Assembly (NCBI GenBank): GCA_009777475.1 | Contig: WRLU01000007.1 | Span: 6,532 to 70,531, forward strand | DNA length: 64,000 bases | Direction of reading: 5' to 3' | From: Oscillospiraceae bacterium | Lineage (GTDB): Bacteria > Bacillota > Clostridia > Oscillospirales > UBA929 | In this document: piece by piece, positions 12,271-42,101 of the stretch | Numbering within the stretch: position 1 is the first letter of the stretch | Layout of the letters: each line of letters starts with the position of its first letter | Translations under genes and position numbers: made by a program | The notes under the pieces: model-generated | What the model was told of the DNA's origin: nothing | The model's database searches: none | Seen by the model: the letters and a program-made list of their open reading frames with translations, nothing else

Positions 12271-14208
<1,938 letters not shown>

Positions 14209-14288
14209 AGGAAGAAATAAACCATGCTGTCTTATCATGCGGACGGAAAAGTGCCGGTAACTTGGATGCGTAAAGGGAGGGGAACCGC

Positions 14289-15431
14289 TTGAATAAAGGT
14301 ATGTTGTTTTTTATACCCGCATTAATTTTAGGTTTGCTTATGACCCTAAGCTCCTGTGATGACCCCTATCCCTTGGAGGCAACGCCATACGGCGAGCCTG
14401 ACAGGCGTGGTTCATGGTCTCAAATCGACCAGCAAATAGACCGCCCCTATGACTGGAGGCAAATCGTGCAGGACAGTGAGTTTCAATTGGGCGAAAGTGT
14501 ACCGGACTCAAGCCTGGGGGAAATGGGAAGTTCGGGGTATGACCCATACAGAGAGATGTTCGGCACATACCCGCGCATTGACGGCTCAACTGTGGCTCTC
14601 CCCATGGCTTTGGAGTTTGCCCGGCAGCATTTAGAGCTTTCTGATGTGAAATCCGAGTCATTCGTCCGTTTTCAAACAACACACAACGCTTATGCAGAAT
14701 TGATTACAGGCAATCCTATTGAAGGAAGTCTGTATTCATCATATCCCTGGAGAATTAAGGGTGACAATAAAGAGTTCTTCCTTGACCCTGACCATCCTGT
14801 TGACATTATCTTAGCGACTGAGCCGTCTGATGAAGAGCTGGCTTTAGCCAGGGAAAACAACGTAGCCCTGCTGAAAGAGCCTGTATGCTGGGATGCCTTT
14901 GTGTTTATCACACACAAGGACAACCCTGTAAAGAGCCTGACCGTTGAGCAAATTCGGAAAATCTACACAGGCGAAATCACCAATTGGAAGTCATCGGGCG
15001 GCCAAGACAAAGAAATTACCGCCTATCAGAGGGAGAAAAATTCGGGAAGCCAGACCGCTATGGAAAACCTTGTAATGCAGGGGGAGCAGATGGCGGAGCC
15101 GCCCATGGTAATTCCTGTGCTGGAAATGTCAAAGATGGTTGAGGCTATTGCCGAGGAATATCAGAACGACTCCGCCAGCATAGGCTACACCTACAAATAT
15201 TACATTGATGAACTATACAAAAACGAAAACATCAAAATCCTGCAAATCAACGGCATAGAGCCGTCTAACGAAAACATCCGGGGCAAAGCCTATCCCTTTA
15301 CTGTCAATTACTACGGCGTTATCCGGGATACCGACAGGGACAAAACCGGCGGTAAATTTTTAGACTGGATACTGTCGCAAGAGGGGCAGAGATGCGTTGC
15401 CCAGGTGGGGTATATACCGCTGAAGGACTGA
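14289..15431 (+). CDS. PstS-like (PBP type 2) substrate-binding lipoprotein
   Basis: Lipobox LSSC after a hydrophobic leader. LTVEQIRKIYTGEITNWKSSGG...ITAYQREKNSGSQ is typical of phosphate-binding-protein-like domains. The start (TTG 14289 or ATG 14301) is uncertain. Confidence 0.7.
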   Translation: MNKGMLFFIPALILGLLMTLSSCDDPYPLEATPYGEPDRRGSWSQIDQQIDRPYDWRQIVQDSEFQLGESVPDSSLGEMGSSGYDPYREMFGTYPRIDGSTVALPMALEFARQHLELSDVKSESFVRFQTTHNAYAELITGNPIEGSLYSSYPWRIKGDNKEFFLDPDHPVDIILATEPSDEELALARENNVALLKEPVCWDAFVFITHKDNPVKSLTVEQIRKIYTGEITNWKSSGGQDKEITAYQREKNSGSQTAMENLVMQGEQMAEPPMVIPVLEMSKMVEAIAEEYQNDSASIGYTYKYYIDELYKNENIKILQINGIEPSNENIRGKAYPFTVNYYGVIRDTDRDKTGGKFLDWILSQEGQRCVAQVGYIPLKD

Positions 15432-15479
15432 GTGCTACAGACAGCGAAATAAGCTTGCAACCGAGAGGAGAAATAAGTA

Positions 15480-17981
15480 ATGTCAGACAAACACACCGGA
15501 CAAGAACATGAAAACGTAAGTTTTGAGAATCAAAAAATCATACCTGTCGATTTAGAGAGGGAAATGCGAACGGCATTTCTGCAATACTCTATGTCGGTCA
15601 TAACCTCGCGGGCACTTCCCGATGTGCGGGATGGGCTGAAGCCGGTACACAGGCGCATACTCTACACCATGCACGAGGAAAACCTGACGCCGGACAAGCC
15701 CTTCCGCAAGTCTGCAACTGCAGTAGGCGATGTGCTGGGACGGTACCATCCCCACGGCGACCAGTCTGTCTATGATGCACTTGTGCGTATGGCCCAGCCA
15801 TTTTCCATGCGGCATATGCTGATTGACGGCCACGGAAACTTCGGTTCGGTGGACGGCGACCCTCCCGCGGCCTACAGATACACCGAGGCACGCATGAGCA
15901 AGCTTGCGGTGGAAATGCTGCGTTACATTGAAAAGGAAACGGTGGACTTTATACCTAACTATGACGGCTCACGCAAAGAGCCGACAGTCTTACCCTGCCT
16001 CTTTCCCAATCTGCTAGTCAACGGATCTTCGGGAATAGCGGTTGGCATGGCAACTAATATACCACCGCATAACTTAAAGGAAACAGTCGGGGCTATCCTG
16101 TGTGTGATTGACAACGAAGAAGCCGAACTCGAGGATTTGATGGAACATCTGAGCGGTCCGGATTTCCCGACTGCCGGTCAGATTTACGGAAAGGCTGGCA
16201 TACGGCAGGCGTATTCATCCGGCAGGGGCAAGGTGCGTGTACGAGCTAAGGCAGAAATAGAAGAATATAAAAATAAGATGCGTATTGTTGTAAGCGAGCT
16301 TCCCTACCAGGTCAACAAGGCGGAGCTTGTAAAGCATATCGGCACACTGGCACAGAGCAAACAACTCGAGGGCATTTCCGCCCTGCGCGATGAGTCCGGG
16401 CGTGCCGGCATGAAAATTGTCATTGACCTAAAGCGGGATGCCAATGCGCAAGTAGTTCTAAACAAATTATACGCACAAACCAGAATGCAGACAACCTTTG
16501 CCATTAACATGATTGCGCTAGTTGGCGGACAGCCCATGACATTGGGGCTGAGGCCTATTTTAGACCATTACATCGCCCATCAAAAGGAAGTCATCTGCCG
16601 CCGCACAGAGTATGATCTGCGCCGTGCCTTGGAACGTATGCACCTTTTGGAGGGCCTGAAAATAGCGGTTGACAACATTGATGAGGTAATTAAAATCATC
16701 CGCTCAAGCTATAACAATGCTAAATCGCGCCTGATGGAGCGTTTTGGCCTGTCGGATGTACAGGGTCAGGCTATCGTGGATATGCGGCTGGGAAGGCTGC
16801 AGGGACTTGAAATTGAAAAATTACAGGCTGAAATAGACTCTTTGGCGTTAGCAATTGTGGATTACCGTGATATTTTAGCTAAAGACGAGAGAGTAAAGGA
16901 TATTTTACGCAATGAGCTGACGACCCTTTCTGAAAGGTTTGGGAATGTCAGGCGTACCGAAATCGTTGATAATGAAGACGAAATTGATTTAGAGGATTTA
17001 ATAGAGCGTGAGGACTGTGTGTACACATTGACCCAAGTTGGATACATGAAGCGTACTCCCCGCTCAATCTACCGCTCCCAGAGGCGGGGCGGCAGGGGCG
17101 TTGCAGGTCAGACGGTGAGAGATGAAGATTACATCAAGGAATTGTTTGTCGCGAGTACCCATGACGACATTTATTTTTTCACCACCTCCGGGCGTATGTT
17201 CAAAAAACGAGGCTATCACGTGCCCGAGGCATCCCGTACGGCAAAGGGGCTGAATTTGGCAAACCTTCTCCCTCTTGAGGCCGATGAAACAGTTACCTCT
17301 GTTATCCCGATGGGGGATGATGAAGAGGTGGGCTACCTATTCTTCGCAACTAAACACGGTATTGTTAAGCGTACACGCATGGATTTGTTTGCATCTGCCG
17401 GACGGAAATCCGGCTTGCGCGCGGTTAGCCTTGATGAGGGCGATGAGCTTATCGGTGTACGCAAAACCGATGGCAATCAGGATATGCTGCTTGCAACCCG
17501 GGGCGGGCTTGCCATTTGCTTCAATGAAACCGGTGTTAGGGAGGTAGGGCGATCTGCCCGGGGAGTTATCGGCATACGTTTGCTTGAAGACGACTATGTG
17601 ATCGACTTGGCGTGTGCAAGGGCAGGTGCCGAGTTGCTGACTGTAACCGAAAACGGTTTCGGCAAGCGTACCCATATCGATGAATACAAGCGTGGCGGCG
17701 AGGCCCAAAACCGTGGCGGCAAGGGCTTAAAAAACCAGAATTTAACTGAACAAACCGGCAAGGTCGCCGGAGTGCGGGTTGTCGATGAGGACGACGACAT
17801 TATGTTCATCTCAGACGATGGCGTAATTATTAGAACAGCCGTTGCTGGAATCCGCCGTTGCTCAAGAACCTCAAAAGGTGTTATACTCATGCGTTTAGCC
17901 AAGGGCGCAAGAGTAATAACCTTAGCACGTACATTCAAAGAAGAAGAAGAAGAAGAGGAGCAGGAAATCCACGAGGAATAA
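15480..17981 (+). CDS. gyrA: DNA gyrase subunit A
   Basis: [29 protein letters not shown] (active-site Tyr region), a C-terminal beta-pinwheel and an acidic tail. Confidence 0.97.
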
Positions 17982-21371: not shown

Positions 21372-21625
21372 CTAAATAAGCAAGAGAGCCTTTCGGCTCT
21401 CCTGTAAGGTTGGCATTTGGCAGGCGTAGCATTCTCCTGCGTCTCTCGGGTTGCCCCTGTCAATACCAGCGGCGTGTGGTCGCTACGAAATCCACCACCT
21501 CAAACACCCAACCTTATTGTTCGACAGGATAAAGGGTTGTCGGCAGGGCCGGCTGTTCCTGCATCACTTTTGGCCGCTGGGGCGCGTGGATGCCGTTGTC
21601 CACCCCAACAACCCATTACCATCAT
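21372..21625 (-). ncRNA. Candidate structured RNA 'A' (~250 nt), family unassigned
   Basis: Begins just downstream of a near-consensus promoter and ends at GAGAGCC-GAAA-GGCTCTC plus TTGCTTATTT. It contains several perfect 7-9-bp long-range complementarities and no credible ORF. Confidence 0.5.
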
Positions 21626-21827: not shown

Positions 21828-22868
21828 TCAAAAAAGGCGGTGCGGCACCCATACTCTCCTACGAATGGTCGAAGGCCAGCGGCAAGGGACCCGATGGCAG
21901 CTGGCTGCATCGGCTCGACCCAGCAATTCTCGCTCAATCCGCTTTTTATTGCTGAGTTCAATGGCATCACGGATGGCTTCTTGCTGTGTGTCTATTTTGC
22001 GAAAGATGGCATCGAGTTTTTTATCATCATCATCTTCCTGTTGGTTTTTCCATACTTTAGAGAGAAGCTCATAGAGTTCTTGACCATCCGGGAAGTCGTT
22101 ATATCCCAACAGCATATCGTCCCAAAGGCGAGGGGTGCTTATGGCGGCAACATATTCTGCTTCAGTGCTGTTTTGGTTTAAGTGAGCAAATGCGTAGTGC
22201 ATCACTTGGCGGTCTAAATTCATGCGTACACTCGCAGAGATTGCTCCAACGTTATACAAAAGTTGGGCTGCCTCCAGCATTTCTTGGGGCGAGGAAAACT
22301 TCAACCCACCTAAAATTTCTTTCTGTTGCGCTTCAGGGGAGAGTCCGGCTAAACCGTATTTCTCAGCATAGAACAATGCAGCGATGGGACTCATATAAGT
22401 GTTATCCCGTAGCCCTTGAATCTCTGTCGGCGTGAGAAAAGCATATGATTGGGGATTCGCCTCGTATTCTTCAACGGTCGCTGACTTATGAAAACCAGGG
22501 ATTCCTGCCTCGGCCAATTCGTTACGAAACTCTGATGTTATTTCCGCATATTTTAGCCTTGTAGATGCTGCCTCTGCTGAAAAACCAAGGTCGGGTATAT
22601 TGTTTTTTGTTTCAAAGTCATCCCCATGAAGCGTGGCGTATTTGGTATAAATTTCAGCATATTTATCCAGCCACATCAGCGTTTCAGCATCCAACTCGGA
22701 TCGCACCTCAGCGATGCGGTCAGCAGCAGACGGAACGGCGGTTGCGATAGTTTGCGATTTCTGCAGTTGTGCCAAGATTTTTGTGAAGCCATCACCGGCA
22801 ATGCCTGATGTTTTTGACGACTGTAAATTGTTCACAGAAGGCGTAGTAGTCAAGCCTGATATGTTCAA
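21828..22868 (-). CDS. Hypothetical protein (347 aa from TTG 22868, or 362 aa from ATG 22916)
   Basis: Long ORF with protein-like composition. TTG at 22868 (MNISGLTTTPS...) lies 6 nt after GAGGAGGA, whereas ATG 22916 has no RBS. I recognise no family. Confidence 0.6.
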   Translation of the reverse strand: MNISGLTTTPSVNNLQSSKTSGIAGDGFTKILAQLQKSQTIATAVPSAADRIAEVRSELDAETLMWLDKYAEIYTKYATLHGDDFETKNNIPDLGFSAEAASTRLKYAEITSEFRNELAEAGIPGFHKSATVEEYEANPQSYAFLTPTEIQGLRDNTYMSPIAALFYAEKYGLAGLSPEAQQKEILGGLKFSSPQEMLEAAQLLYNVGAISASVRMNLDRQVMHYAFAHLNQNSTEAEYVAAISTPRLWDDMLLGYNDFPDGQELYELLSKVWKNQQEDDDDKKLDAIFRKIDTQQEAIRDAIELSNKKRIERELLGRADAASCHRVPCRWPSTIRRRVWVPHRLF

Positions 22869-22957
22869 ATTGCTTCCTCCTCGTATAAAGCTATATTTTC
22901 TGCGAAAAATTTTCATGCTTTTCGCAATGTATACATCGACCGAAACCCCATATGTCT

Positions 22958-23124
22958 TTAGGGAAAAAGGGCTGCGGTTATATTTGGAATACCGCAGCCC
23001 TTTTGTTTGGTTTTAGCCGATGAAGAGGTTTTGGCACTTTGGCGAGTGTACCCCTTCCCGCATTTCTTTTGACCCGAAGGGTGCGTAGCAGCACAATCTC
23101 TACTTCAAAGCACCAACCCATTGT
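22958..23124 (-). promoter_or_regulatory. Leader RNA 'B' with an intrinsic terminator (attenuator or riboswitch-like)
   Basis: Runs from promoter B to the AAAAGGGCTGCGGT / ACCGCAGCCCTTTT stem (22965-23004) plus a U-tract, about 50-100 nt ahead of the orphan ORF. Confidence 0.5.
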
Positions 23125-27783: not shown

Positions 27784-28257
27784 CTAATGGTCGCTTAACA
27801 CCTTTTCTAAGTTAATCAGGAGCTTATTGCCGTGGTCAGTCCTGGCAATAGACTTAATATACCGGTTTTGCTGTGCAGCCGCCGCGGCGGGGTCTCCTAT
27901 CTGACTGTCGTCAATCACCAAAACATCCCGGATGGTATCAACGATTAAGCCTATCGAGGTGTTCAAGTGGTTTACCACAATAATACAAGTGCGGTCATCA
28001 TATTCCTGAGGCATCTTATTGAAACGGAGCCTTACGTCCATGACCGGTGTAATTTTACCGCGTAGATTGATGAGCCCCTTAATATAAGAGGGTATATCGG
28101 GAACATCGGTAATAGGCTGTATGCCGATAATCTCCGTGACATAGGCGATTTCCATACCGTATTCCTCATCGCTCACGCAAAAGGTCAGGTATTTCCCCTG
28201 TGTTTCATTAAAATCTCCGCCCAAAAGGTCGTTCAGTTCATCCATACTGAATAACAT
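27784..28257 (-). CDS. cheW: Chemotaxis coupling protein CheW
   Basis: YLTFCVSDEEYGMEIAYVTEIIGIQPITDVPDIPSYIKGLINLRGKI is a CheW domain. Confidence 0.9.
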   Translation of the reverse strand: MLFSMDELNDLLGGDFNETQGKYLTFCVSDEEYGMEIAYVTEIIGIQPITDVPDIPSYIKGLINLRGKITPVMDVRLRFNKMPQEYDDRTCIIVVNHLNTSIGLIVDTIRDVLVIDDSQIGDPAAAAAQQNRYIKSIARTDHGNKLLINLEKVLSDH

Positions 28258-28303: not shown

Positions 28304-30433
28304 TTAGTGCGTTAAGCTTTTTACGTCAATAATCAGGCTTATGCTGCCATCGCCCAAAAGGGTACAGCCGGAAATTCCGTAAATCTGACCAATACGCTCG
28401 GTGATAAAGTTGGGAATAGGCTTGACAACTGCCTGCTGCTCCCCTACCAAGGCATCAGCAAAAACCGCGGTCATGCAATCATCGTCTTCTATCATAATCA
28501 TTATGCCGTCCTCAAATTGCTCAATTTCGGTGTCGACACCAAACAGGCTGTGCAAGCGCACAATGCTAAAGCACTCGCCGCGGTACATAATCATCTCATT
28601 GCCATCGGGGTCGATGATGATATTCTCACTCTTGGGCTTGTAGGTCTCGCGTATATTGAGTGTGGGAATGAGGTAGTTGTTTTTTCCCACGCTGATCTCA
28701 ATAGATTGCAAAATTGCCAATGTGAGCGGTATTCGGATATTAACGGTCATGCCCTCGCCCGGCGATGAGTCTAAATCAACGCTCCCGCCGACCTTTTCAA
28801 TATTTTTCTTAACAACATCCATTCCCACACCGCGCCCGGAAAGCTCGGTCACGGCATCATTGGTGGAAAATCCGGCGTTCATTATAAACTGATACACCTC
28901 TTTGTCGGTGTATTCGTTTTCGGGACGAGCCAACAGACCGTTCGCCCTTGCCTTGTTCAGAATTTTTTCGCGGCTGAGGCCCTTGCCATCGTCTGAGCAG
29001 TAGATGATGACATCTGAGCCGGAGTTGCGTGCCTCAAGTACAATTTTTCCTGCAGGCGGCTTGCCTGCATTAATCCGTTCTTCCTTGCTGTCCTCAATGC
29101 CATGATCCATTGAGTTTCTGATGATGTGCATCAGGGGATCTGAAAGGTGGTCGATGATATTTTTGTCAACCTCGGTCTCCTCTCCCAAAATAACAAGCTC
29201 TGCTTCTTTGCCAAGCTTTTTAGCTGTATCACGCACAATCCGGGACATTTTGTGGAATGTGGAGGATATGGGCAACATACGCACCGACATGATAATATCC
29301 TGAAGCTCTCCTGTGTTTTTTAGAAGCTGCACGGATGCTTTTTCAAAATTATCTAATTCCAGCCCATCCAAATCAGGATTGTTGACCACCATGGAAACTG
29401 AAATGACTATTTCACCCATAAGATCCATCAGCTTGTCAAGCTTATCCACATTAACACTAATAAACCTCTGTTTAATTTCTGCGGCCTGAGGCTCCGCTGG
29501 AACCGCCGGAATAGGAAGAGGCGGCTCCTCAACAACGGCAGCCGGAGTCGGCTCCTCAACAATCTCAGGCTTTTTGCTTTTGGCCTTCTTTTTCTTGGGC
29601 TTGGCTTCCTTTGGAGGGGCATCCTCCGGGGATTTCCCCGCAGGAGCATCGGCAGGGGAAGCGTTATTCTCACCATCGACTACAATATCAAAGGTTTTTA
29701 CAAACAGAGCCTCGGAAATTACCGACTCTATCTTTTTCAGCGGAACAGAAGAGTGTATTGACAGCTTTACCCCTGATGCGATAATTTCGTCAGAGCAATC
29801 CTCCAGCAAATCATGCGGCTCTGTTTCTATCTTATCGGCATATTCGTTCAAGGTGCTGACAATGGTGTAGGCTCGGATATTCTCCATTTTACAGCCTGGC
29901 TCAAAGAAAATTTGGCATTTGTACACATTTAACACGTTTAACCCATCCTCTGCTTCCAAGTTTTCTTTAGCTTGGTCATCTTCATCCCCATCATTCTCCC
30001 CGCTGCCTTCCCCTCCGCTATTTTCCGGCACCTGGCCTTCGTTGAGCAAGGAGTCCATGCATTTAGCAATACGATCTAAGGTTTCCGACATATCGCCATC
30101 TGACGGCTTGCCGTCCTGTATCTTAGAGACCTCCTGCTTGAAGAAATCTATTGCCTCCAAGCAAATATCGGTTATTTCTCCCCAGTCCGGCTCTGCCTCC
30201 CCATGCTCCCGGATAAAGAAGAACATATCCTCAATTTTATGCGCCAACGCGGCGATCTCATCGTATTCCATCATGGCCGCCGAGCCTTTGATGGTATGCA
30301 TAATCCGGAAAACCTCATTGATGTGTTCAGAATTAAGACCTCCGGCGTGTTCGCCTTCAATCATAACCTCCTCTAGCTTTTCGGTTAATTGCACATTTTC
30401 AAATATGAACATTTCCAGCATATCATTGGACAT
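28304..30433 (-). CDS. cheA: Chemotaxis histidine kinase CheA
   Basis: HPt motif MHTIKGSAAMM, dimerisation and HATPase domains (DDGKGL, GRGVGMDVV) and a C-terminal CheW-like domain. Confidence 0.95.
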   Translation of the reverse strand: MSNDMLEMFIFENVQLTEKLEEVMIEGEHAGGLNSEHINEVFRIMHTIKGSAAMMEYDEIAALAHKIEDMFFFIREHGEAEPDWGEITDICLEAIDFFKQEVSKIQDGKPSDGDMSETLDRIAKCMDSLLNEGQVPENSGGEGSGENDGDEDDQAKENLEAEDGLNVLNVYKCQIFFEPGCKMENIRAYTIVSTLNEYADKIETEPHDLLEDCSDEIIASGVKLSIHSSVPLKKIESVISEALFVKTFDIVVDGENNASPADAPAGKSPEDAPPKEAKPKKKKAKSKKPEIVEEPTPAAVVEEPPLPIPAVPAEPQAAEIKQRFISVNVDKLDKLMDLMGEIVISVSMVVNNPDLDGLELDNFEKASVQLLKNTGELQDIIMSVRMLPISSTFHKMSRIVRDTAKKLGKEAELVILGEETEVDKNIIDHLSDPLMHIIRNSMDHGIEDSKEERINAGKPPAGKIVLEARNSGSDVIIYCSDDGKGLSREKILNKARANGLLARPENEYTDKEVYQFIMNAGFSTNDAVTELSGRGVGMDVVKKNIEKVGGSVDLDSSPGEGMTVNIRIPLTLAILQSIEISVGKNNYLIPTLNIRETYKPKSENIIIDPDGNEMIMYRGECFSIVRLHSLFGVDTEIEQFEDGIMIMIEDDDCMTAVFADALVGEQQAVVKPIPNFITERIGQIYGISGCTLLGDGSISLIIDVKSLTH

Positions 30434-30635: not shown

Positions 30636-31706
30636 TCAGCCTAACAGCTGCAGTACAGACTGCGGGATCTTGCTTGCCTGTGACAGCATAGCAGCTGCCG
30701 ATTGGGAAAGAACCTGATCCTTTGCAAGCTCCATCATTTCTTTTGCTACATCTGCGTCCCGGATACGGCTTTCAGCCGCCTGGAGATTTTCCCCTGTGTT
30801 GCCTAAGGAGCTCATGGCATGCTCCAAACGGTTCTGCACCGCACCCAGCTGCACCCTCAATTCGCTGACCCGGGCTATGCCGGTTTTTGGGTCCGCCCAC
30901 TCCTCGGGCTGTGTGCCGTCTTCATTCAGGCCGTCTATCACGTTTACCAGAGAGTGGAAAGCGTTGACCGACCAAACATACGGATAGCCCTGAGCCTCCA
31001 ATGTCCCATCCTCTATCGGCAAAAACCCGGGGCCAACGGCATTGCAGCCTTGGCGTATCAGCATTCCCCGCTTCCCTGTCCCATCCGGTGCCTGCCAAAA
31101 CGTTGGGTCATCATCGGTGTCAACGAATGTGAGAAGCGAATGGGCGTTAACGCTTGAAAAGCTGAGCGGAATCGCATCCTGGCATACCGGATCCGCCCCG
31201 GCCTGGAGAAAAATTCTGCCGATTAAATCATCGGCATCCCATCTCGGGTTGAAGTGGTTATCAACATACGGTGAGTCAAAATCACAGTACAGTCCGCTGA
31301 GGATATATTTGCCGTTGAAATCTACACTATCGGCAATGCGGTCTAACTCAAGGCAGAGCTGTTCTATTTCGTCCATGACGGCGATTCTGTCCTCGGGTGC
31401 GTTGATATCGTTCGCGCCTTGAAGGGCCAGCTCTCGTATGCGGTGGAGGATATCGTGGGAGCCTTGAAGGGCACTGTCTGCGGCCTGGAGCATTGATATA
31501 CCGTCCTGGATATTTGCACAGGCCCTGTGTACCCCTCTTATCCGGGAACGCAGCTTTTCCGATATAGAAAGTCCCGCGGCATTGTCTGCGGCACGGTTGA
31601 CCTGGAATCCCGAACTTAACCTTTCGGTAACCTTGGCCTGCTTGCGCCGGGTTTTATCCAGCTGTATCAGGGCATGAGCCGCCGCCGTATTGGTTCTTAT
31701 TCGCAC
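30636..31706 (-). CDS. Flagellin
   Basis: N-terminal RIRTNTAAAHAL...RLSSGFQVNRAADNAAGLSISEKLRS and C-terminal ...LSQASKIPQSVLQLLG. GTG at 31706 gives the usual MRI(R)TN start. Confidence 0.9.
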   Translation of the reverse strand: MRIRTNTAAAHALIQLDKTRRKQAKVTERLSSGFQVNRAADNAAGLSISEKLRSRIRGVHRACANIQDGISMLQAADSALQGSHDILHRIRELALQGANDINAPEDRIAVMDEIEQLCLELDRIADSVDFNGKYILSGLYCDFDSPYVDNHFNPRWDADDLIGRIFLQAGADPVCQDAIPLSFSSVNAHSLLTFVDTDDDPTFWQAPDGTGKRGMLIRQGCNAVGPGFLPIEDGTLEAQGYPYVWSVNAFHSLVNVIDGLNEDGTQPEEWADPKTGIARVSELRVQLGAVQNRLEHAMSSLGNTGENLQAAESRIRDADVAKEMMELAKDQVLSQSAAAMLSQASKIPQSVLQLLG

Positions 31707-31900
31707 AGACTCATCCCCCCGCTTCTGCTCCCGCAGCACAACATCCTCTTTATTCTATCATATCTTAATTAAAAAGAAAAGCTTTTTTTCAGAATCCGCC
31801 CTCTTGTCAAAGCTTAAGGCTTCTGGTATTGTTGTGGTACTGGGCTCCACACTTTAGCTTCCTAATGATGCCCGGAATAGATTTTGGGGGAATTGGTAAA

Positions 31901-32722
31901 ATGAGTGCCGAACCTATGCGGTTGCTGCTGGTAGAGGACGATGTGTGCGAAGCCATCAAGTTTACGGAGGCCGCCAAGCGCAGGACAGACATAGCCTTTG
32001 TGGGAATGACAGATTCATCTGAGGATGGCATGGATCTTGTCAAATCCCGGTTGCCAGAGGGCGTTATATTAGATTTGCAACTGATTAAGGGTTCCGGATC
32101 CGGCATTAAATTTTTGGAGGATTTGAGTGAAGCCGAGCTGACCCTCCGCCCCTTTGTCGTGGTTACAACAAGCAACCAGTCAGAAGCTGTTTGCAGGCTT
32201 GCCGAGGCATTAGGTGCGGATTTCTTTTTCAGCAAAACACAGCAGGGCTACAATGAGGACTTTGTCATTGATACCCTGCTGTCATTGCGAAGGGTTTTTA
32301 ATGCCAAGCAGAAAAAGCAGGCAGACAAGCCTGTCCAAAGTGATTTGCGCAAGTCAGCGGAGCTGGTTGAATCCCCTGACGACAGGCAGAGGCGTATATA
32401 CAGCCGGATTGATACCGAGCTTGACTTAATCGGCCTCCGGGCAAAGCTTAAGGGCCGCCTGTACCTCAGGGATGCCATTTATATTCAAATACATTCTAAA
32501 AAGCACAGGGGCTCGGGGATAGAGGAGGTTGCCGCAAAATACAGCTACACATATGCATCCATCATCAAAACAATGCAGACAGCAATTAACGATGCCTGGG
32601 ATCATGGGGACATAGATGAAATTATGGTTCACTTTACCGCACGCGTTGCCGCACGAAGCGGGGTTCCCTATGTATCCGACTTTGTCCACTATTATGCCGA
32701 CAAGATAGGCAACAGCATCTGA
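31901..32722 (+). CDS. Spo0A-like response regulator (receiver domain plus Spo0A C-terminal-type DNA-binding domain)
   Basis: Receiver RLLLVEDD...VILDLQL. The C-terminus LIGLRAKLKGRLYLRDAIY...IIKTMQTAINDAWDHGDIDEIMVHF parallels Spo0A IGVPAHIKGYxYLREAI...ERAIRHAIEVAW..GNID. Confidence 0.8.
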   Translation: MSAEPMRLLLVEDDVCEAIKFTEAAKRRTDIAFVGMTDSSEDGMDLVKSRLPEGVILDLQLIKGSGSGIKFLEDLSEAELTLRPFVVVTTSNQSEAVCRLAEALGADFFFSKTQQGYNEDFVIDTLLSLRRVFNAKQKKQADKPVQSDLRKSAELVESPDDRQRRIYSRIDTELDLIGLRAKLKGRLYLRDAIYIQIHSKKHRGSGIEEVAAKYSYTYASIIKTMQTAINDAWDHGDIDEIMVHFTARVAARSGVPYVSDFVHYYADKIGNSI

Positions 32723-33002
32723 TGACCTTACAGCAGTGTTAAGGCGGCCTTAGTGGGATGTCCGCCCCCGGGCAGGCTAGAAGCTCCGCCTCCCCCACAA
32801 GGTGCCACAGGGTGTTAAATGGTCGTTTATATACATGCCGCACCATATGGGAATTGTCCTTCCGCATGGTACTGTTTAGACGTAGTTCCAGTCGCAGTGT
32901 CTGTTTTTCTGATTATGCATCTGTTTCCCTGGAGTGCTTAGTTGGTGAAATGAATCCTCCCGGAAGAGGTAGGCTTGTTTTGGCTTTCAACCTACCGATT
33001 AC

Positions 33003-33047
33003 AAGGAAACCGCCGTTTGTGCAGACGGTGGTTTCCTTGTGTTTTTC
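33003..33047 (+). terminator. Strong intrinsic terminator
   Basis: 15-bp stem CAAGGAAACCGCCGT / ACGGTGGTTTCCTTG followed by TGTTTTT. Confidence 0.8.
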
Positions 33048-33130
33048 CGCGGAAAGCGGCGGTTTGTCAGCAGGGGCAGGAAGGATATTGGTTTACATAA
33101 GTTTATTTAATCATCTTTGTGTACACCTCA

Positions 33131-33169
33131 TATCACACAGAGTTATCCGCTCTGCGTGATATCTTTTTA
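33131..33169 (+). terminator. Imperfect 13-bp inverted repeat with a T-run
   Basis: ATATCACACAGAG - 7 nt - CTCTGCGTGATAT followed by CTTTTTA. Confidence 0.5.
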
Positions 33170-33231
33170 TCAGAGCATAATTTACATAACATCGTTGTTT
33201 GGATCTGAGAAAAGAGGGAGGGGAAATATAG

Positions 33232-33273
33232 TGGCATTGTGGAACTGGATTAAGCGTTTGATGGTCCGGTAAT
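33232..33273 (+). CDS. Candidate 13-codon mini-ORF (MALWNWIKRLMVR)
   Basis: GTG lies 7 nt after a very strong RBS, AGAGGGAGGGG. A terminator follows about 40 nt downstream. It sits between the Spo0A-like regulator and the kinase genes. Confidence 0.25.
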
Positions 33274-33313
33274 TATTGTTTGGATAGTTAAAACCTGGGT
33301 TCATTTTTATAAA

Positions 33314-33364
33314 ACAGGAGACAACGGAAGGAAAGTCCGGGTCTCTTGTTTTATATTTTTTTTA
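33314..33364 (+). terminator. Intrinsic terminator after the mini-ORF
   Basis: AACAGGAGAC / GTCTCTTGTT stem followed by TTATATTTTTTTT. Confidence 0.7.
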
Positions 33365-33409
33365 TGATATAATACTAAAAAGGAAGATGATGATACAGGG
33401 GAGTTAAAT

Positions 33410-34927
33410 ATGTTTGAATTTGGCGTTGATGCAGTCAGGGCTATGGGAACATTGCTTGCAAGTCTGTATATTTTCAAAAGGTCGGTCAGGCAGCAGGTGA
33501 CAAATAAACAAACAATGCTTTCTGTGCTGTTCTGCATGGTAGCGGCGGCTTTATATGCGGCAGCAGTGCCTTGGCTGGCTAGACCGAGTACATATTTGAT
33601 GGAATGCCTTTTATCCATTATTTTTATTTTGCTCATAATCAGGAGGAAGATTAATACTGTTATACCAGCCTACCTATTTTCTTATTGTGTTAGCAATATA
33701 CTATATTATATTACTGTGCCTGTTGTTACAGTCATCTTTGCCGCTGTCATTGACCCTCTCTTGGGCAAAGGGTATATTAATTATGATATTGTTGATCTTA
33801 ACCAGCCTGTTTATCTTTTGTTGTATTCAGCCGTATGCGCCCTGCAGCTTTTATTTTCGGCCCTGCTTTTCAAAATCAGGCGGTTTAAGAATGGCTTTCC
33901 CTTTTTATTTGAGAGGGGCTCCGCCATCATGGCATTGGTTTTTGCGGGGACCATAGTGTTTTTTTCAACACAGCTGAATGCCCTTTCAATGCAAAGGAAT
34001 ACCTCTGCCATGGATTATTACATTGCGGGAATTGCCATTGCCGGAACAGGCATTTTCATATGGTCCCGCAGGGGGCTGCAAGCTTACAGACGTAAACGGA
34101 CAAGGGAAAACAATGAAAAGCTTTTAAGGCGGGAAAATACGGAGCTGCAACGTGAAATCTGTCAACTGAAGGAAAACGAGGAGATCTTCAGGATTGCCAA
34201 TCACAGCATAGCCCACCGCCTTAACGCTATGTCCCGGCGTGTTGCGGAATTGCTGGAAAAATCCCAGGAATATAATTTTTCCGCCGAGTTCAGTCGTGAG
34301 CTGGCTGCTGCCGCGGTCGATATTCGCAATCAGCTGAATGAATACGGCGCAGAGATAAACGCCAAAGCAAGAATAGATATAACCCTGCCCTCGACCAATG
34401 TGAGAATGATAGATGAACTATTTGGTTTATTCGCCGAAAAATTTGCCGCCAACGGCATCAAGTTTAGGCTGATAGCTACTGGCAGTATTATATATATGAC
34501 AGAGAATATAATTAAACAGGGCAGGCTGGAAACGCTGATTGGAGATTTGCTGCAAAACGCGCTGATCGCAATCGAGGCGGGAAGAAGCCACGTAAGCAGT
34601 ATTTTAGCTGTAATCGGTGAGTCAGGCAGCTGTTACGAGCTTTCAGTACATGACAGTGGCATACCCTTTGAGCCAAGCACATTAATGCGGCTCGGCACGG
34701 AGCGGATAACAACCCGCCAATCCGGCGGCGGAAGCGGAGCAGGCATGATGAAAACCTTTGAAACCATAAGAGAGTGCAGCGCAAGCCTAATAATCACCGA
34801 AAACAATGGCGGCGAGTTCTCCAAATCAGTTGCCGTCCGCTTTGATAACAAAAATCAGTATATTATCAAAACCCACCGACCCGATGCCTTCCCGCCCGGT
34901 GACAGATACACAGTCTCCGGGTATTGA
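33410..34927 (+). CDS. Polytopic sensor histidine kinase (GHKL ATPase, AgrC-like architecture)
   Basis: About 6 N-terminal TM segments, a coiled coil, a His region (IANHSIAHRLNAM) and a C-terminal ATPase (HDSGIPF...GGGSGAGMM). Confidence 0.8.
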   Translation: MFEFGVDAVRAMGTLLASLYIFKRSVRQQVTNKQTMLSVLFCMVAAALYAAAVPWLARPSTYLMECLLSIIFILLIIRRKINTVIPAYLFSYCVSNILYYITVPVVTVIFAAVIDPLLGKGYINYDIVDLNQPVYLLLYSAVCALQLLFSALLFKIRRFKNGFPFLFERGSAIMALVFAGTIVFFSTQLNALSMQRNTSAMDYYIAGIAIAGTGIFIWSRRGLQAYRRKRTRENNEKLLRRENTELQREICQLKENEEIFRIANHSIAHRLNAMSRRVAELLEKSQEYNFSAEFSRELAAAAVDIRNQLNEYGAEINAKARIDITLPSTNVRMIDELFGLFAEKFAANGIKFRLIATGSIIYMTENIIKQGRLETLIGDLLQNALIAIEAGRSHVSSILAVIGESGSCYELSVHDSGIPFEPSTLMRLGTERITTRQSGGGSGAGMMKTFETIRECSASLIITENNGGEFSKSVAVRFDNKNQYIIKTHRPDAFPPGDRYTVSGY

Positions 34928-41558: not shown

Positions 41559-42101
41559 CTATGCTTCCATTTGTTTTCCCAGGAAATTAGCTACTGTTTG
41601 CGCCAGCTTGTGTTCGGTATCGGAAAAAGGCTGCCCGGATTCGCCAAGTATAAACATAACACAGCCCGATACATCGCCCTCTGCTAAAATAGGGGCGGCT
41701 ATGCCGGCAAAATGCTTGTCGGCATCATCCACGACACGAAGCTTGTTTTCGCCCTGCTTATACTGATAAACCTGACGGTTTTCCATAACCTTTTCCAAGT
41801 CCTCCCCAATGCGTTTTTCCAAGAGCTCGCGCTGGGGCGCGCCGGCAACTGCTATTATAGCATCCCGATCGCTGATGCAGACCATTCCGCCCGTGGTTTT
41901 TCTCATGGTTTCACAAAGCTGTCCTGCAAAATCAGAGAGCTCCCCCATAGGCGAATATTTTTTGAAAATAACCTCGCCGTCTTTATCAGTATAAATTTCA
42001 AGGGGGTCACCCTCACGTATACGCATGGTTCTGCGGATTTCCTTGGGGATTACAACACGCCCCAAATCATCAATTCGCCTGACAATTCCCGTTGCTTTCA
42101 T
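41559..42101 (-). CDS. spoVT: Stage V sporulation protein T (AbrB-type N-terminus plus GAF-like C-terminus)
   Basis: MKATGIVRRIDDLGRVVIPKEIRRTMRIREGDPLEIY... and a 180-aa size. Confidence 0.9.
   Translation of the reverse strand: MKATGIVRRIDDLGRVVIPKEIRRTMRIREGDPLEIYTDKDGEVIFKKYSPMGELSDFAGQLCETMRKTTGGMVCISDRDAIIAVAGAPQRELLEKRIGEDLEKVMENRQVYQYKQGENKLRVVDDADKHFAGIAAPILAEGDVSGCVMFILGESGQPFSDTEHKLAQTVANFLGKQMEA

Follow-up and report, generated by a model that had tools for sequence, protein, structure and literature searches.

A candidate peptide-sensing two-component cassette with a Spo0A_C-type regulator in gut and termite Clostridia

What is the role of a response regulator with a Spo0A-type DNA-binding domain that is encoded beside a flagellin gene and is separated by several hundred base pairs from a polytopic histidine kinase? 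This question is raised by a locus in a 64,000-nucleotide stretch of contig WRLU01000007.1 (positions 6,532 to 70,531 of the forward strand; hereafter, the window), which comes from a metagenome-assembled genome of a termite-gut-type Oscillospiraceae bacterium. At NCBI, the regulator and the kinase are deposited as FWH04_03255 and FWH04_03260, and both are labelled 'hypothetical protein'. A first-pass annotation of the same DNA had proposed a Spo0A paralogue and an AgrC-like kinase forming a dedicated circuit within a motility locus. We compared the window with 91 related loci from termite, rumen and human-gut Clostridia.

Our results point to a conserved and self-contained peptide-sensing two-component cassette with autoinduction in gut and termite Clostridia, and we give this interpretation a probability of roughly 0.55. 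The cassette would consist of a Spo0A_C regulator, a gene, transcribed on its own, that encodes an unprocessed, Trp-rich peptide of 11-19 residues, a kinase with seven transmembrane segments and, usually, a divergent XRE repressor-like gene. A search of the available literature, including the work of Sberro et al., revealed no account of the cassette or of the peptide family.

A conserved micro-ORF between the regulator and kinase genes

In 73 of 85 loci, a kinase homologue is located 3' of the regulator gene on the same strand. Of the other 12, ten have less than 900 nt of downstream sequence, the contig of L048 ends too early, and L068 is a true exception; the pairing is close to universal, which bears out the dedicated membrane kinase-regulator pair that had been proposed. 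In 40 of 65 loci, the regulator gene is preceded by a divergent XRE/HTH_3 gene encoding 105-130 amino acids, and a census of the nearest neighbours in 65 loci revealed that the genes downstream of the cassette vary among relatives. Several genomes or contigs hold at least two cassettes, and the peptides differ where both can be read (L042 and L057). Cultured carriers are Ruminococcus intestinalis NSJ-71 (predicted peptide MWDDIYEFLKQLLGK) and Eubacterium sp. OM08-24 (predicted peptide MWETLYELLKRLWG).

The gap between the two genes measures 687 bp in the window and 200-450 bp in most relatives. It had been described as an untranslated spacer of about 690 bp with three terminators, and both the length and the three hairpin/T-run elements, at 33001-33040, 33130-33162 and 33308-33355, were recovered; in Table 1 the latter two are listed with their full T-runs. 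The spacer is not untranslated, however, as it contains a conserved ORF of 13 codons, starting with GTG and preceded by a strong ribosome-binding site. When micro-ORFs were defined as reading frames of 11-19 codons with a ribosome-binding site and at least two Trp codons, one of them within residues 2-6, such frames were present on the plus strand in 51 of 65 gaps and on the minus strand in three, while dinucleotide shuffles of the 65 gaps gave a mean of 0.28 and a maximum of two. A strong ribosome-binding site precedes nearly all of the orthologous micro-ORFs. Even the three minus-strand frames, in L037, L062 and L067, resemble genuine inverted copies and still lie between regulator and kinase. 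These three loci belong to a sister clade, in which the gaps are short and the H-box differs (H-[RK]-D-N-K-L-[IV]-P-A); an example of an inverted peptide is MWNDFWETVRRILNGR.

The 62 distinct peptides of 11-19 residues contain 19% Trp and 33% aromatic residues, with a W-[ED]-W-[LI] motif towards the N-terminal end and, in many cases, [YF]-W-G towards the C-terminal end; MWHWLMQLFAFGVA, MWQWFIQMFAWGAY, MSFWEWLAYWFGL, MWEWLMELLSYWGGV and MWDWLIRMIGGGL are examples from relatives. They are very hydrophobic and Trp-flanked, 55 of the 62 are neutral or anionic, and none has a double-glycine leader. Cysteine is present in only seven, so that no thiolactone is expected. Between related peptide pairs, 69 synonymous and 130 non-synonymous codon differences were counted, and synonymous changes occur at conserved residues. 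In L001 and L012, the micro-ORF is duplicated in tandem, and each copy has its own ribosome-binding site. In the window, an exact 10-nt direct repeat, TTGTTTGGAT, flanks the micro-ORF (33195-33204 and 33276-33285); it may be what remains of a peptide unit duplicated in tandem, an arrangement that is intact in L001 and L012.

This composition brings to mind a small leaderless antimicrobial or membrane-active effector, for which the two-component system would serve as producer regulator or immunity sensor, as in the case of nisin with NisRK. Short Trp-rich peptides are often membrane-active, and lantibiotics are known to be autoinduced by their own product, but the predominance of neutral or anionic peptides and the lack of conserved immunity or ABC transporter genes nearby make this explanation quite unlikely.

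The regulator and the adjacent kinase

As previously annotated, the output domain of the regulator is Spo0A_C-like: it matches the Pfam Spo0A_C family with 46.5 bits (residues 172-269; gathering threshold, GA, 25) and aligns to the Spo0A structures 1FC3 and 1LQ1 with E about 1e-8. The receiver had been called strongly diverged, which holds for its sequence (Response_reg, 29.3 bits, just under the GA of 30.2) but not otherwise, since its key residues E12/D13, D58, T89/T90 and K112 (acidic pocket, phospho-acceptor and switch) are conserved and the CheY-like fold is kept. In the AlphaFold2 model of the regulator (pLDDT 85), the receiver reaches TM-scores of 0.85-0.88 to Spo0A receiver structures, and the C-terminal domain has six helices. 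On the sequence evidence the regulator is, as first suggested, a Spo0A paralogue and not canonical Spo0A, because its score against TIGR02875, the NCBIfam Spo0A equivalog, is 85.2 bits and lies far under the cut-off of 200. The same behaviour was seen with 17 diverse representatives of the family, the best of which gave E = 3.3e-26. The recognition helix reads ASIIKTMQTAINDAW in the window regulator and SRVERAIRHAIEVAW in Spo0A. The change from R-H to Q-T holds throughout the family, Q226 and T227 being invariant, and that from E-R to K-T is found in the clade of the window; many gut-clade members retain S-V-E-R yet have MQTAI. This is a large family. When 1.84 billion representatives were searched with a profile, 331 clusters (50% identity) were obtained at E <= 1e-30, and a gut-clade regulator as the only query gave 1029 clusters (90% identity) at E <= 1e-20.

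That this protein is nevertheless the single, diverged Spo0A of the organism, served by a dedicated sporulation kinase and possibly coupled to motility, is very improbable. Its domain architecture (REC and Spo0A_C), the adjacent flagellin gene and a SpoVT-like sporulation gene in the window are all compatible with such a role. However, the low TIGR02875 score is common to the whole family, the recognition helix differs, and the gene adjoins a cognate kinase gene and not spoIVB, its neighbours being flagellin and kinase here and XRE gene and kinase in relatives. Flagellin never adjoins the gene in relatives, several genomes have at least two copies, and SpoIVA adjoins the cassette in two loci. 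Paralogues have also been published: two or three spo0A genes in some Clostridiales are mentioned in passing in doi 10.1101/2022.02.25.481979. The SpoVT-like gene indicates that the host keeps at least one forespore regulator gene, and this suggests that the rest of the genome holds a genuine sporulation pathway and, with it, a canonical spo0A.

Spo0A_C has otherwise been taken as uniquely diagnostic of Spo0A (PMC6136694), but our findings argue that a REC and Spo0A_C protein is not necessarily Spo0A. Where members of this family are labelled Spo0A, estimates of sporulation in metagenomes that are based on spo0A can be inflated. Some pipelines name family members 'two-component system response regulator, stage 0 sporulation protein A'. 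In Faecalibacterium duncaniae, which does not sporulate, proteomics detected three 'Spo0A homolog' proteins (PMC13020158), and it is possible that these are members of the regulator family.

The kinase had been described as a protein of 505 residues with about six transmembrane helices and a GHKL ATPase domain. Its length and its N, G1 and G2 boxes agree with this description; the number of transmembrane segments was revised, as about seven are predicted from the helices of the model and the positive-inside rule, with the N-terminus outside and the C-terminus inside. The one Pfam match is a weak HATPase_c, with no Pfam assignment for a sensor or DHp domain. In alignments of 25 and 31 homologues, His265 is invariant within an N-H-x-x-x-H-R motif, and the N-box (D379, N/D383), the G1 box (D415-x-G417-x-x-F) and the G2 box (G441-x-G443-x-G445) were all recognized. 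An AlphaFold2 prediction made with database homologues (pLDDT 81) comprises an N-terminal membrane helix bundle, a DHp helix and an alpha/beta ATPase domain; the final helix of the bundle continues directly as the long DHp helix that bears His265. Foldseek matches of this model are DHp-CA cores, among them those of HK853, ZraS and KinB. Both model and sequence indicate that the extracellular loops are short.

Only two of 25 kinases matched the AgrC-type family HATPase_c_5, and neither the window nor the neighbour censuses revealed an AgrB or LytTR partner. The term 'AgrC-like' thus describes a design and not a family, and as judged from sequence the kinase belongs to a new family. Mean identity across this family is 23% in the sensor half and 42% in the kinase half (42-43% for the kinase half and the regulator), which means that the sensor half changes at roughly double the pace of the other two. 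Diversification of a receptor with its ligand would yield such a pattern. The peptide-sensor-like architecture noted in the first-pass annotation gains support from the conserved micro-peptide gene between regulator and kinase.

Predicted transcription units and a proposed autoinduction circuit

Hairpins equivalent to the two conserved elements of the window gap, term1 and term2, were detected in 42 of 56 and in 40 of 55 loci, respectively. The first is likely the terminator of the regulator gene, and the base of its stem is conserved as (C/T)CAC...GTG(G/A)TATTTTT because the 3' arm and the T-run double as an extended -10 element, the candidate promoter of the micro-ORF. TGnTAnnnT was present in the scanned upstream segment of 47 of 56 loci, mostly 40-80 nt 5' of the micro-ORF; the evidence for a promoter is this positional conservation across loci and not a single match. 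The predicted 5' untranslated region (5'UTR) has 26-60 nt in most loci and is unstructured (mean folding z-score -0.28). For this reason, a stem TGTCA...TGACA that had been noticed by eye in a few loci was not considered general. The second hairpin ends the predicted micro-ORF transcript, and just after it, about 30-50 nt 5' of the kinase start, TATAAT or TGnTATAAT occurs in most of the listed loci. Regulator, peptide and kinase thus appear to form three separate transcription units. The additional length of the window gap, about 300 bp that are missing from relatives, is located in the interval from the regulator stop codon to the first conserved hairpin and includes the window-specific hairpin; for the extra 408 bp (32723-33130), no homologue was found in other loci or elsewhere in the window.

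These signals bear on whether the micro-ORF could instead be cis-regulatory, as a small RNA that controls kinase expression or as a leader or arrest peptide of the kind found in Trp-sensing attenuators (trpL, tnaC), while the two-component system senses an unrelated signal. The heavy enrichment of Trp codons (19%) and the terminator that follows the micro-ORF just upstream of the kinase gene would fit this explanation, which we nonetheless consider unlikely. In most loci, a separate -10 element for the kinase gene follows that terminator, so that read-through control is not needed, and a stand-alone unit that encodes the micro-ORF only argues for the peptide as the product and not as an attenuator leader. 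Conservation extends beyond the Trp codons to the W-[ED]-W-[LI] and C-terminal [YF]W-G motifs and is accompanied by synonymous changes at conserved residues, the 5'UTR is unstructured, and duplicated and inverted copies are hard to square with an attenuator. No Rfam match to a known RNA was obtained in the window spacer.

Upstream of the micro-ORF promoter, many loci contain two or three direct repeats with a phasing of 10-11 bp. Their best score averaged 10.5 compared with 8.25 in shuffled sequences, and 13 of 49 loci scored above all 40 of their shuffles. The repeat unit depends on the clade: several clades have TTCGACA, the complement of TGTCGAA, which is the '0A box' of Spo0A, and others have TTTGCAT, ATGTAA, TTCAAC or CTGTAAATAC. 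The density of perfect 0A-box 7-mers is 0.56 per kb in this upstream region and 0.07 per kb in the rest of the loci (8-fold), and tandem CGACA-N5/6-CGACA arrangements were found six times in the 32 kb that follow the regulator stop codons and once in 642 kb elsewhere. In L086, the repeat is also present, inverted, upstream of the regulator gene. The phased repeats are candidate binding sites of the regulator.

The following circuit would account for the cassette. The peptide would be made from its own short mRNA, with a promoter overlapping the regulator terminator, a strong ribosome-binding site and its own terminator, and it would partition into or cross the membrane, where the membrane-embedded sensor half of the kinase would sense it. 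The kinase would then autophosphorylate at His265 and pass the phosphate to Asp58 of the regulator, which would bind the phased repeats upstream of the peptide promoter (0A-box-like TTCGACA in several clades) and so close an autoinduction loop; the regulator would also control further targets. The data show the genes, how they are ordered and conserved, the micro-ORF with its statistics, the signals of the transcription units and the catalytic residues; translation and export of the peptide, its binding to the kinase, phosphotransfer, binding of the regulator to the repeats and the output regulon are inferred.

Several observations weigh against this peptide-sensing cassette. In the nearest-neighbour censuses of 65 loci, no gene for an exporter, a protease or a modification enzyme is conserved close to the cassette, and about 10 loci are without a recognizable micro-ORF. 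Peptides of 11-19 residues fall below the reporting limit of gene callers, so that independent annotation is not available for them. A crude test of co-variation between peptide and sensor gave a partial correlation of 0.008, that is, none beyond shared phylogeny, with transmembrane regions that align poorly (23% identity). The window copy itself is atypical: it has a GTG start, about 300 extra bp and an additional terminator, shows no significant phased repeats, and is accompanied by no XRE homologue within the 64 kb. It may be rewired or decaying; since all three window ORFs are intact and keep their catalytic residues, it may be functional but rewired.

The lack of conserved export or processing genes nearby would also be expected if the peptide were not an intercellular signal but a cell-autonomous, membrane-resident modulator of the kinase, providing feedback or a timer like MgrB or SafA with PhoQ, while the kinase senses, for example, the state of the membrane or a compound from host or diet. 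Peptides that are very hydrophobic, flanked by Trp and for the most part without charge suit interfacial membrane binding, and the short extracellular loops of the kinase are in line with this. However, known kinase modulators that span the membrane are longer than these peptides of 11-19 residues, and the diverged peptides of paralogous cassettes, together with the tandem duplications, fit pherotype-like signals better. We regard a modulator of this kind as possible but doubtful.

Going beyond the peptide-sensing cassette as such, the unprocessed and leaderless Trp-rich peptide (11-19 residues, own transcript of about 100 nt) might be an extracellular signal for a new family of seven-transmembrane kinases, with a regulator that reads 0A-type boxes and density information that feeds into, or competes with, the Spo0A regulon. 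We put this forward tentatively and consider it less likely than not. If it were true, it would represent a previously unrecognized, widespread class of cell-cell signalling in gut, rumen and termite Clostridia that touches on decisions about sporulation, colonization and transmission. Should the circuit model hold, gut anaerobes would offer a new signalling system that is experimentally easy, as short peptides with no apparent modification can be synthesized at low cost. The micro-ORFs would also provide an example of functional genes of 11-19 codons below the reporting limit of gene callers.

Relation to known systems and genomic setting

The logic of the cassette is analogous to that of Agr, ComQXPA and the double-glycine pheromone systems, whereas its parts are different. 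With Agr (AgrBDCA of Staphylococcus and the clostridial Agr-like systems with VirSR) it shares a polytopic sensor kinase and a small peptide gene in one locus, a fast-evolving sensor half, multiple diverged copies per genome and a presumed autoinduction loop, a likeness in design and not in homology. AgrD-type precursors have about 40-50 residues with Cys or Ser, whereas the cassette peptides have no leader or tail; no AgrB was found, either in the window or among the families listed for the ORFs nearest to the cassette on each side in 65 loci. The cassette kinase is mostly without HATPase_c_5, the regulator carries Spo0A_C and not LytTR, and the order is regulator, peptide, kinase, as three apparent transcription units. 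ComQXPA of Bacillus subtilis likewise combines a Trp-containing peptide pheromone with a multi-pass membrane kinase, but the cassette has no 55-residue precursor of the ComX kind, its kinase is not ComP-like, its regulator is not of the NarL/ComA type, and a ComQ prenyltransferase was found neither in the window nor in the listed nearest-neighbour families. Double-glycine pheromone systems (ComCDE, BlpRH, Pln) differ by their leader and their C39-peptidase ABC exporter; no ABC-transporter or peptidase family was present among the listed nearest-neighbour families of the cassette.

Closer in peptide type are the streptococcal SHP and XIP systems (Rgg/SHP and ComRS), with very short, hydrophobic, often Trp-rich and unmodified peptides whose unannotated micro-ORFs neighbour the gene of their receptor and an XRE-type HTH protein. 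PptAB, which exports them, is encoded at another place in the genome (PMC7564271). Those peptides are, however, cut from precursors of 17-35 residues, re-imported and bound by a cytoplasmic RRNPP receptor with a TPR-like domain, whereas the candidate receptor of the cassette is a membrane kinase; its XRE partners, with 105-130 residues and only HTH_3-type matches, have no room for a peptide-binding repeat domain. MgrB and SafA with PhoQ offer the parallel of a tiny hydrophobic product near or under a two-component system that may act on the membrane domain of the kinase, but these proteins have 47-65 residues and a full transmembrane helix, in contrast to the 11-19 residues of the cassette peptides.

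Canonical Spo0A (TIGR02875, PF08769) resembles the regulator in REC and Spo0A_C domains, in six predicted C-terminal helices and in the 0A-box-like TTCGACA of several clades. It is served by orphan kinases or a phosphorelay and occurs as one master copy in a conserved spoIVB-spo0A neighbourhood, whereas the family regulator has an adjacent cognate kinase and no spoIVB beside it, and can be multi-copy. In catalytic terms, the cassette follows classical two-component systems, with a kinase His on the DHp domain, N, G1 and G2 boxes, and a receiver with acidic pocket, Asp, and Thr and Lys switch.

Table 1 Features of the cassette in the window, followed by neighbouring and other genes
Feature	Position	Strand	Remarks
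Candidate sigma-A promoter of regulator gene	31804-31832	+	TTGTCA, 17 nt, TATTGT, with TG; consensus scan only, weak
Response regulator, 273 aa	31901-32722	+	CheY-like receiver and Spo0A_C-type DNA-binding domain
Hairpin, 19-bp stem, then T-run	33001-33040	+	Strong; window-specific
term1, hairpin and T-run	33130-33168	+	Inverted repeat; likely regulator terminator; 3' arm and T-run overlap extended -10
Extended -10-like element TGATATCTT	33157-33165	+	Candidate micro-ORF promoter
Shine-Dalgarno GAGGGAGGGG	33214-33223	+	7 nt 5' of GTG start; sequence reading
Micro-ORF, 13 codons, GTG start	33231-33272	+	Encodes MALWNWIKRLMVR; proposed signalling or modulator peptide
term2, hairpin and T-run	33308-33364	+	Inverted repeat; predicted end of micro-ORF transcript
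Kinase promoter, extended -10 TGATATAAT	33365-33373	+	37 nt 5' of ATG; directly after term2
Sensor histidine kinase, 505 aa	33410-34927	+	Polytopic; DHp helix with His265; GHKL ATPase
Flagellin	30636-31739	-	Flagellin_N and Flagellin_C; divergent from regulator; not part of cassette
CheA	28304-30433	-	Window annotation
CheW	27784-28257	-	Window annotation
Sigma70_r4 protein, 135 aa	34929-35336	-	Pfam Sigma70_r4 30 bits; phrog_36 E = 8e-22; not a conserved part of cassette
SpoVT-like gene	41559-42101	-	TIGR02851 234.2 bits, cut-off 235.9
gyrB and gyrA	12286-17981	+	Window in gyrB/gyrA region
tRNA genes	2336, 20363, 20452		

The first-pass annotation had placed the regulator downstream of cheW, cheA and flagellin and had considered a link to motility. 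The genes are indeed next door, but they are on the opposite strand and are therefore divergent from the regulator gene instead of preceding it within one operon. Flagellin or che genes adjoin the cassette in none of about 90 related loci, the closest relatives (69-73% identity) included, and because no relative has them nearby, both the link to motility and the idea of a cassette embedded in a motility locus were rejected. Flagellin sits here at the site where relatives have the divergent XRE regulator gene, and its adjacency in this genome appears incidental.

On the other side, the Sigma70_r4 gene is convergent with the kinase gene, with adjacent stop codons, and a P-type ATPase gene lies beyond it. 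It was rejected as a component of the cassette, given that the sigma-like genes near the cassettes of the window, L002 and L004 are mutually non-homologous and the window copy is of phage type; it may be a mobile-element remnant. Beside the cassettes of L088 (4514-6186) and L004 (1-7263) are an integrase and excisionase with toxin-antitoxin genes, or Tn916-like Sigma70_r4/HTH_16 genes, which hints that cassettes are occasionally carried on mobile elements. A phage or plasmid origin was not adopted, as there were no relatives in IMG/VR, no plasmid DNA match in PLSDB and no defence hit with PADLOC. L086 has a second, more diverged cassette (12636-15496; divergent XRE, regulator and kinase) in opposite orientation, about 4 kb from the first. 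A SpoVT/AbrB-like gene lies between the two, and no micro-ORF was recognized in the 230-bp gap of the second.

Elsewhere in the window, three copies of the skipping-rope RNA motif (RF02924) are found on the minus strand (21412-21508, 21535-21613 and 23034-23113), bracketing an ORF of 362 amino acids (21828-22916, minus strand) without an NCBIfam hit. The gyrB/gyrA region, in which the window lies, is near the replication origin in many bacteria. The flagellin ORF as listed opens with an 11-residue extension, MLREQKRGDES, and its true start is probably an internal GTG that gives the usual N-terminus (M)RIRTNTAA.

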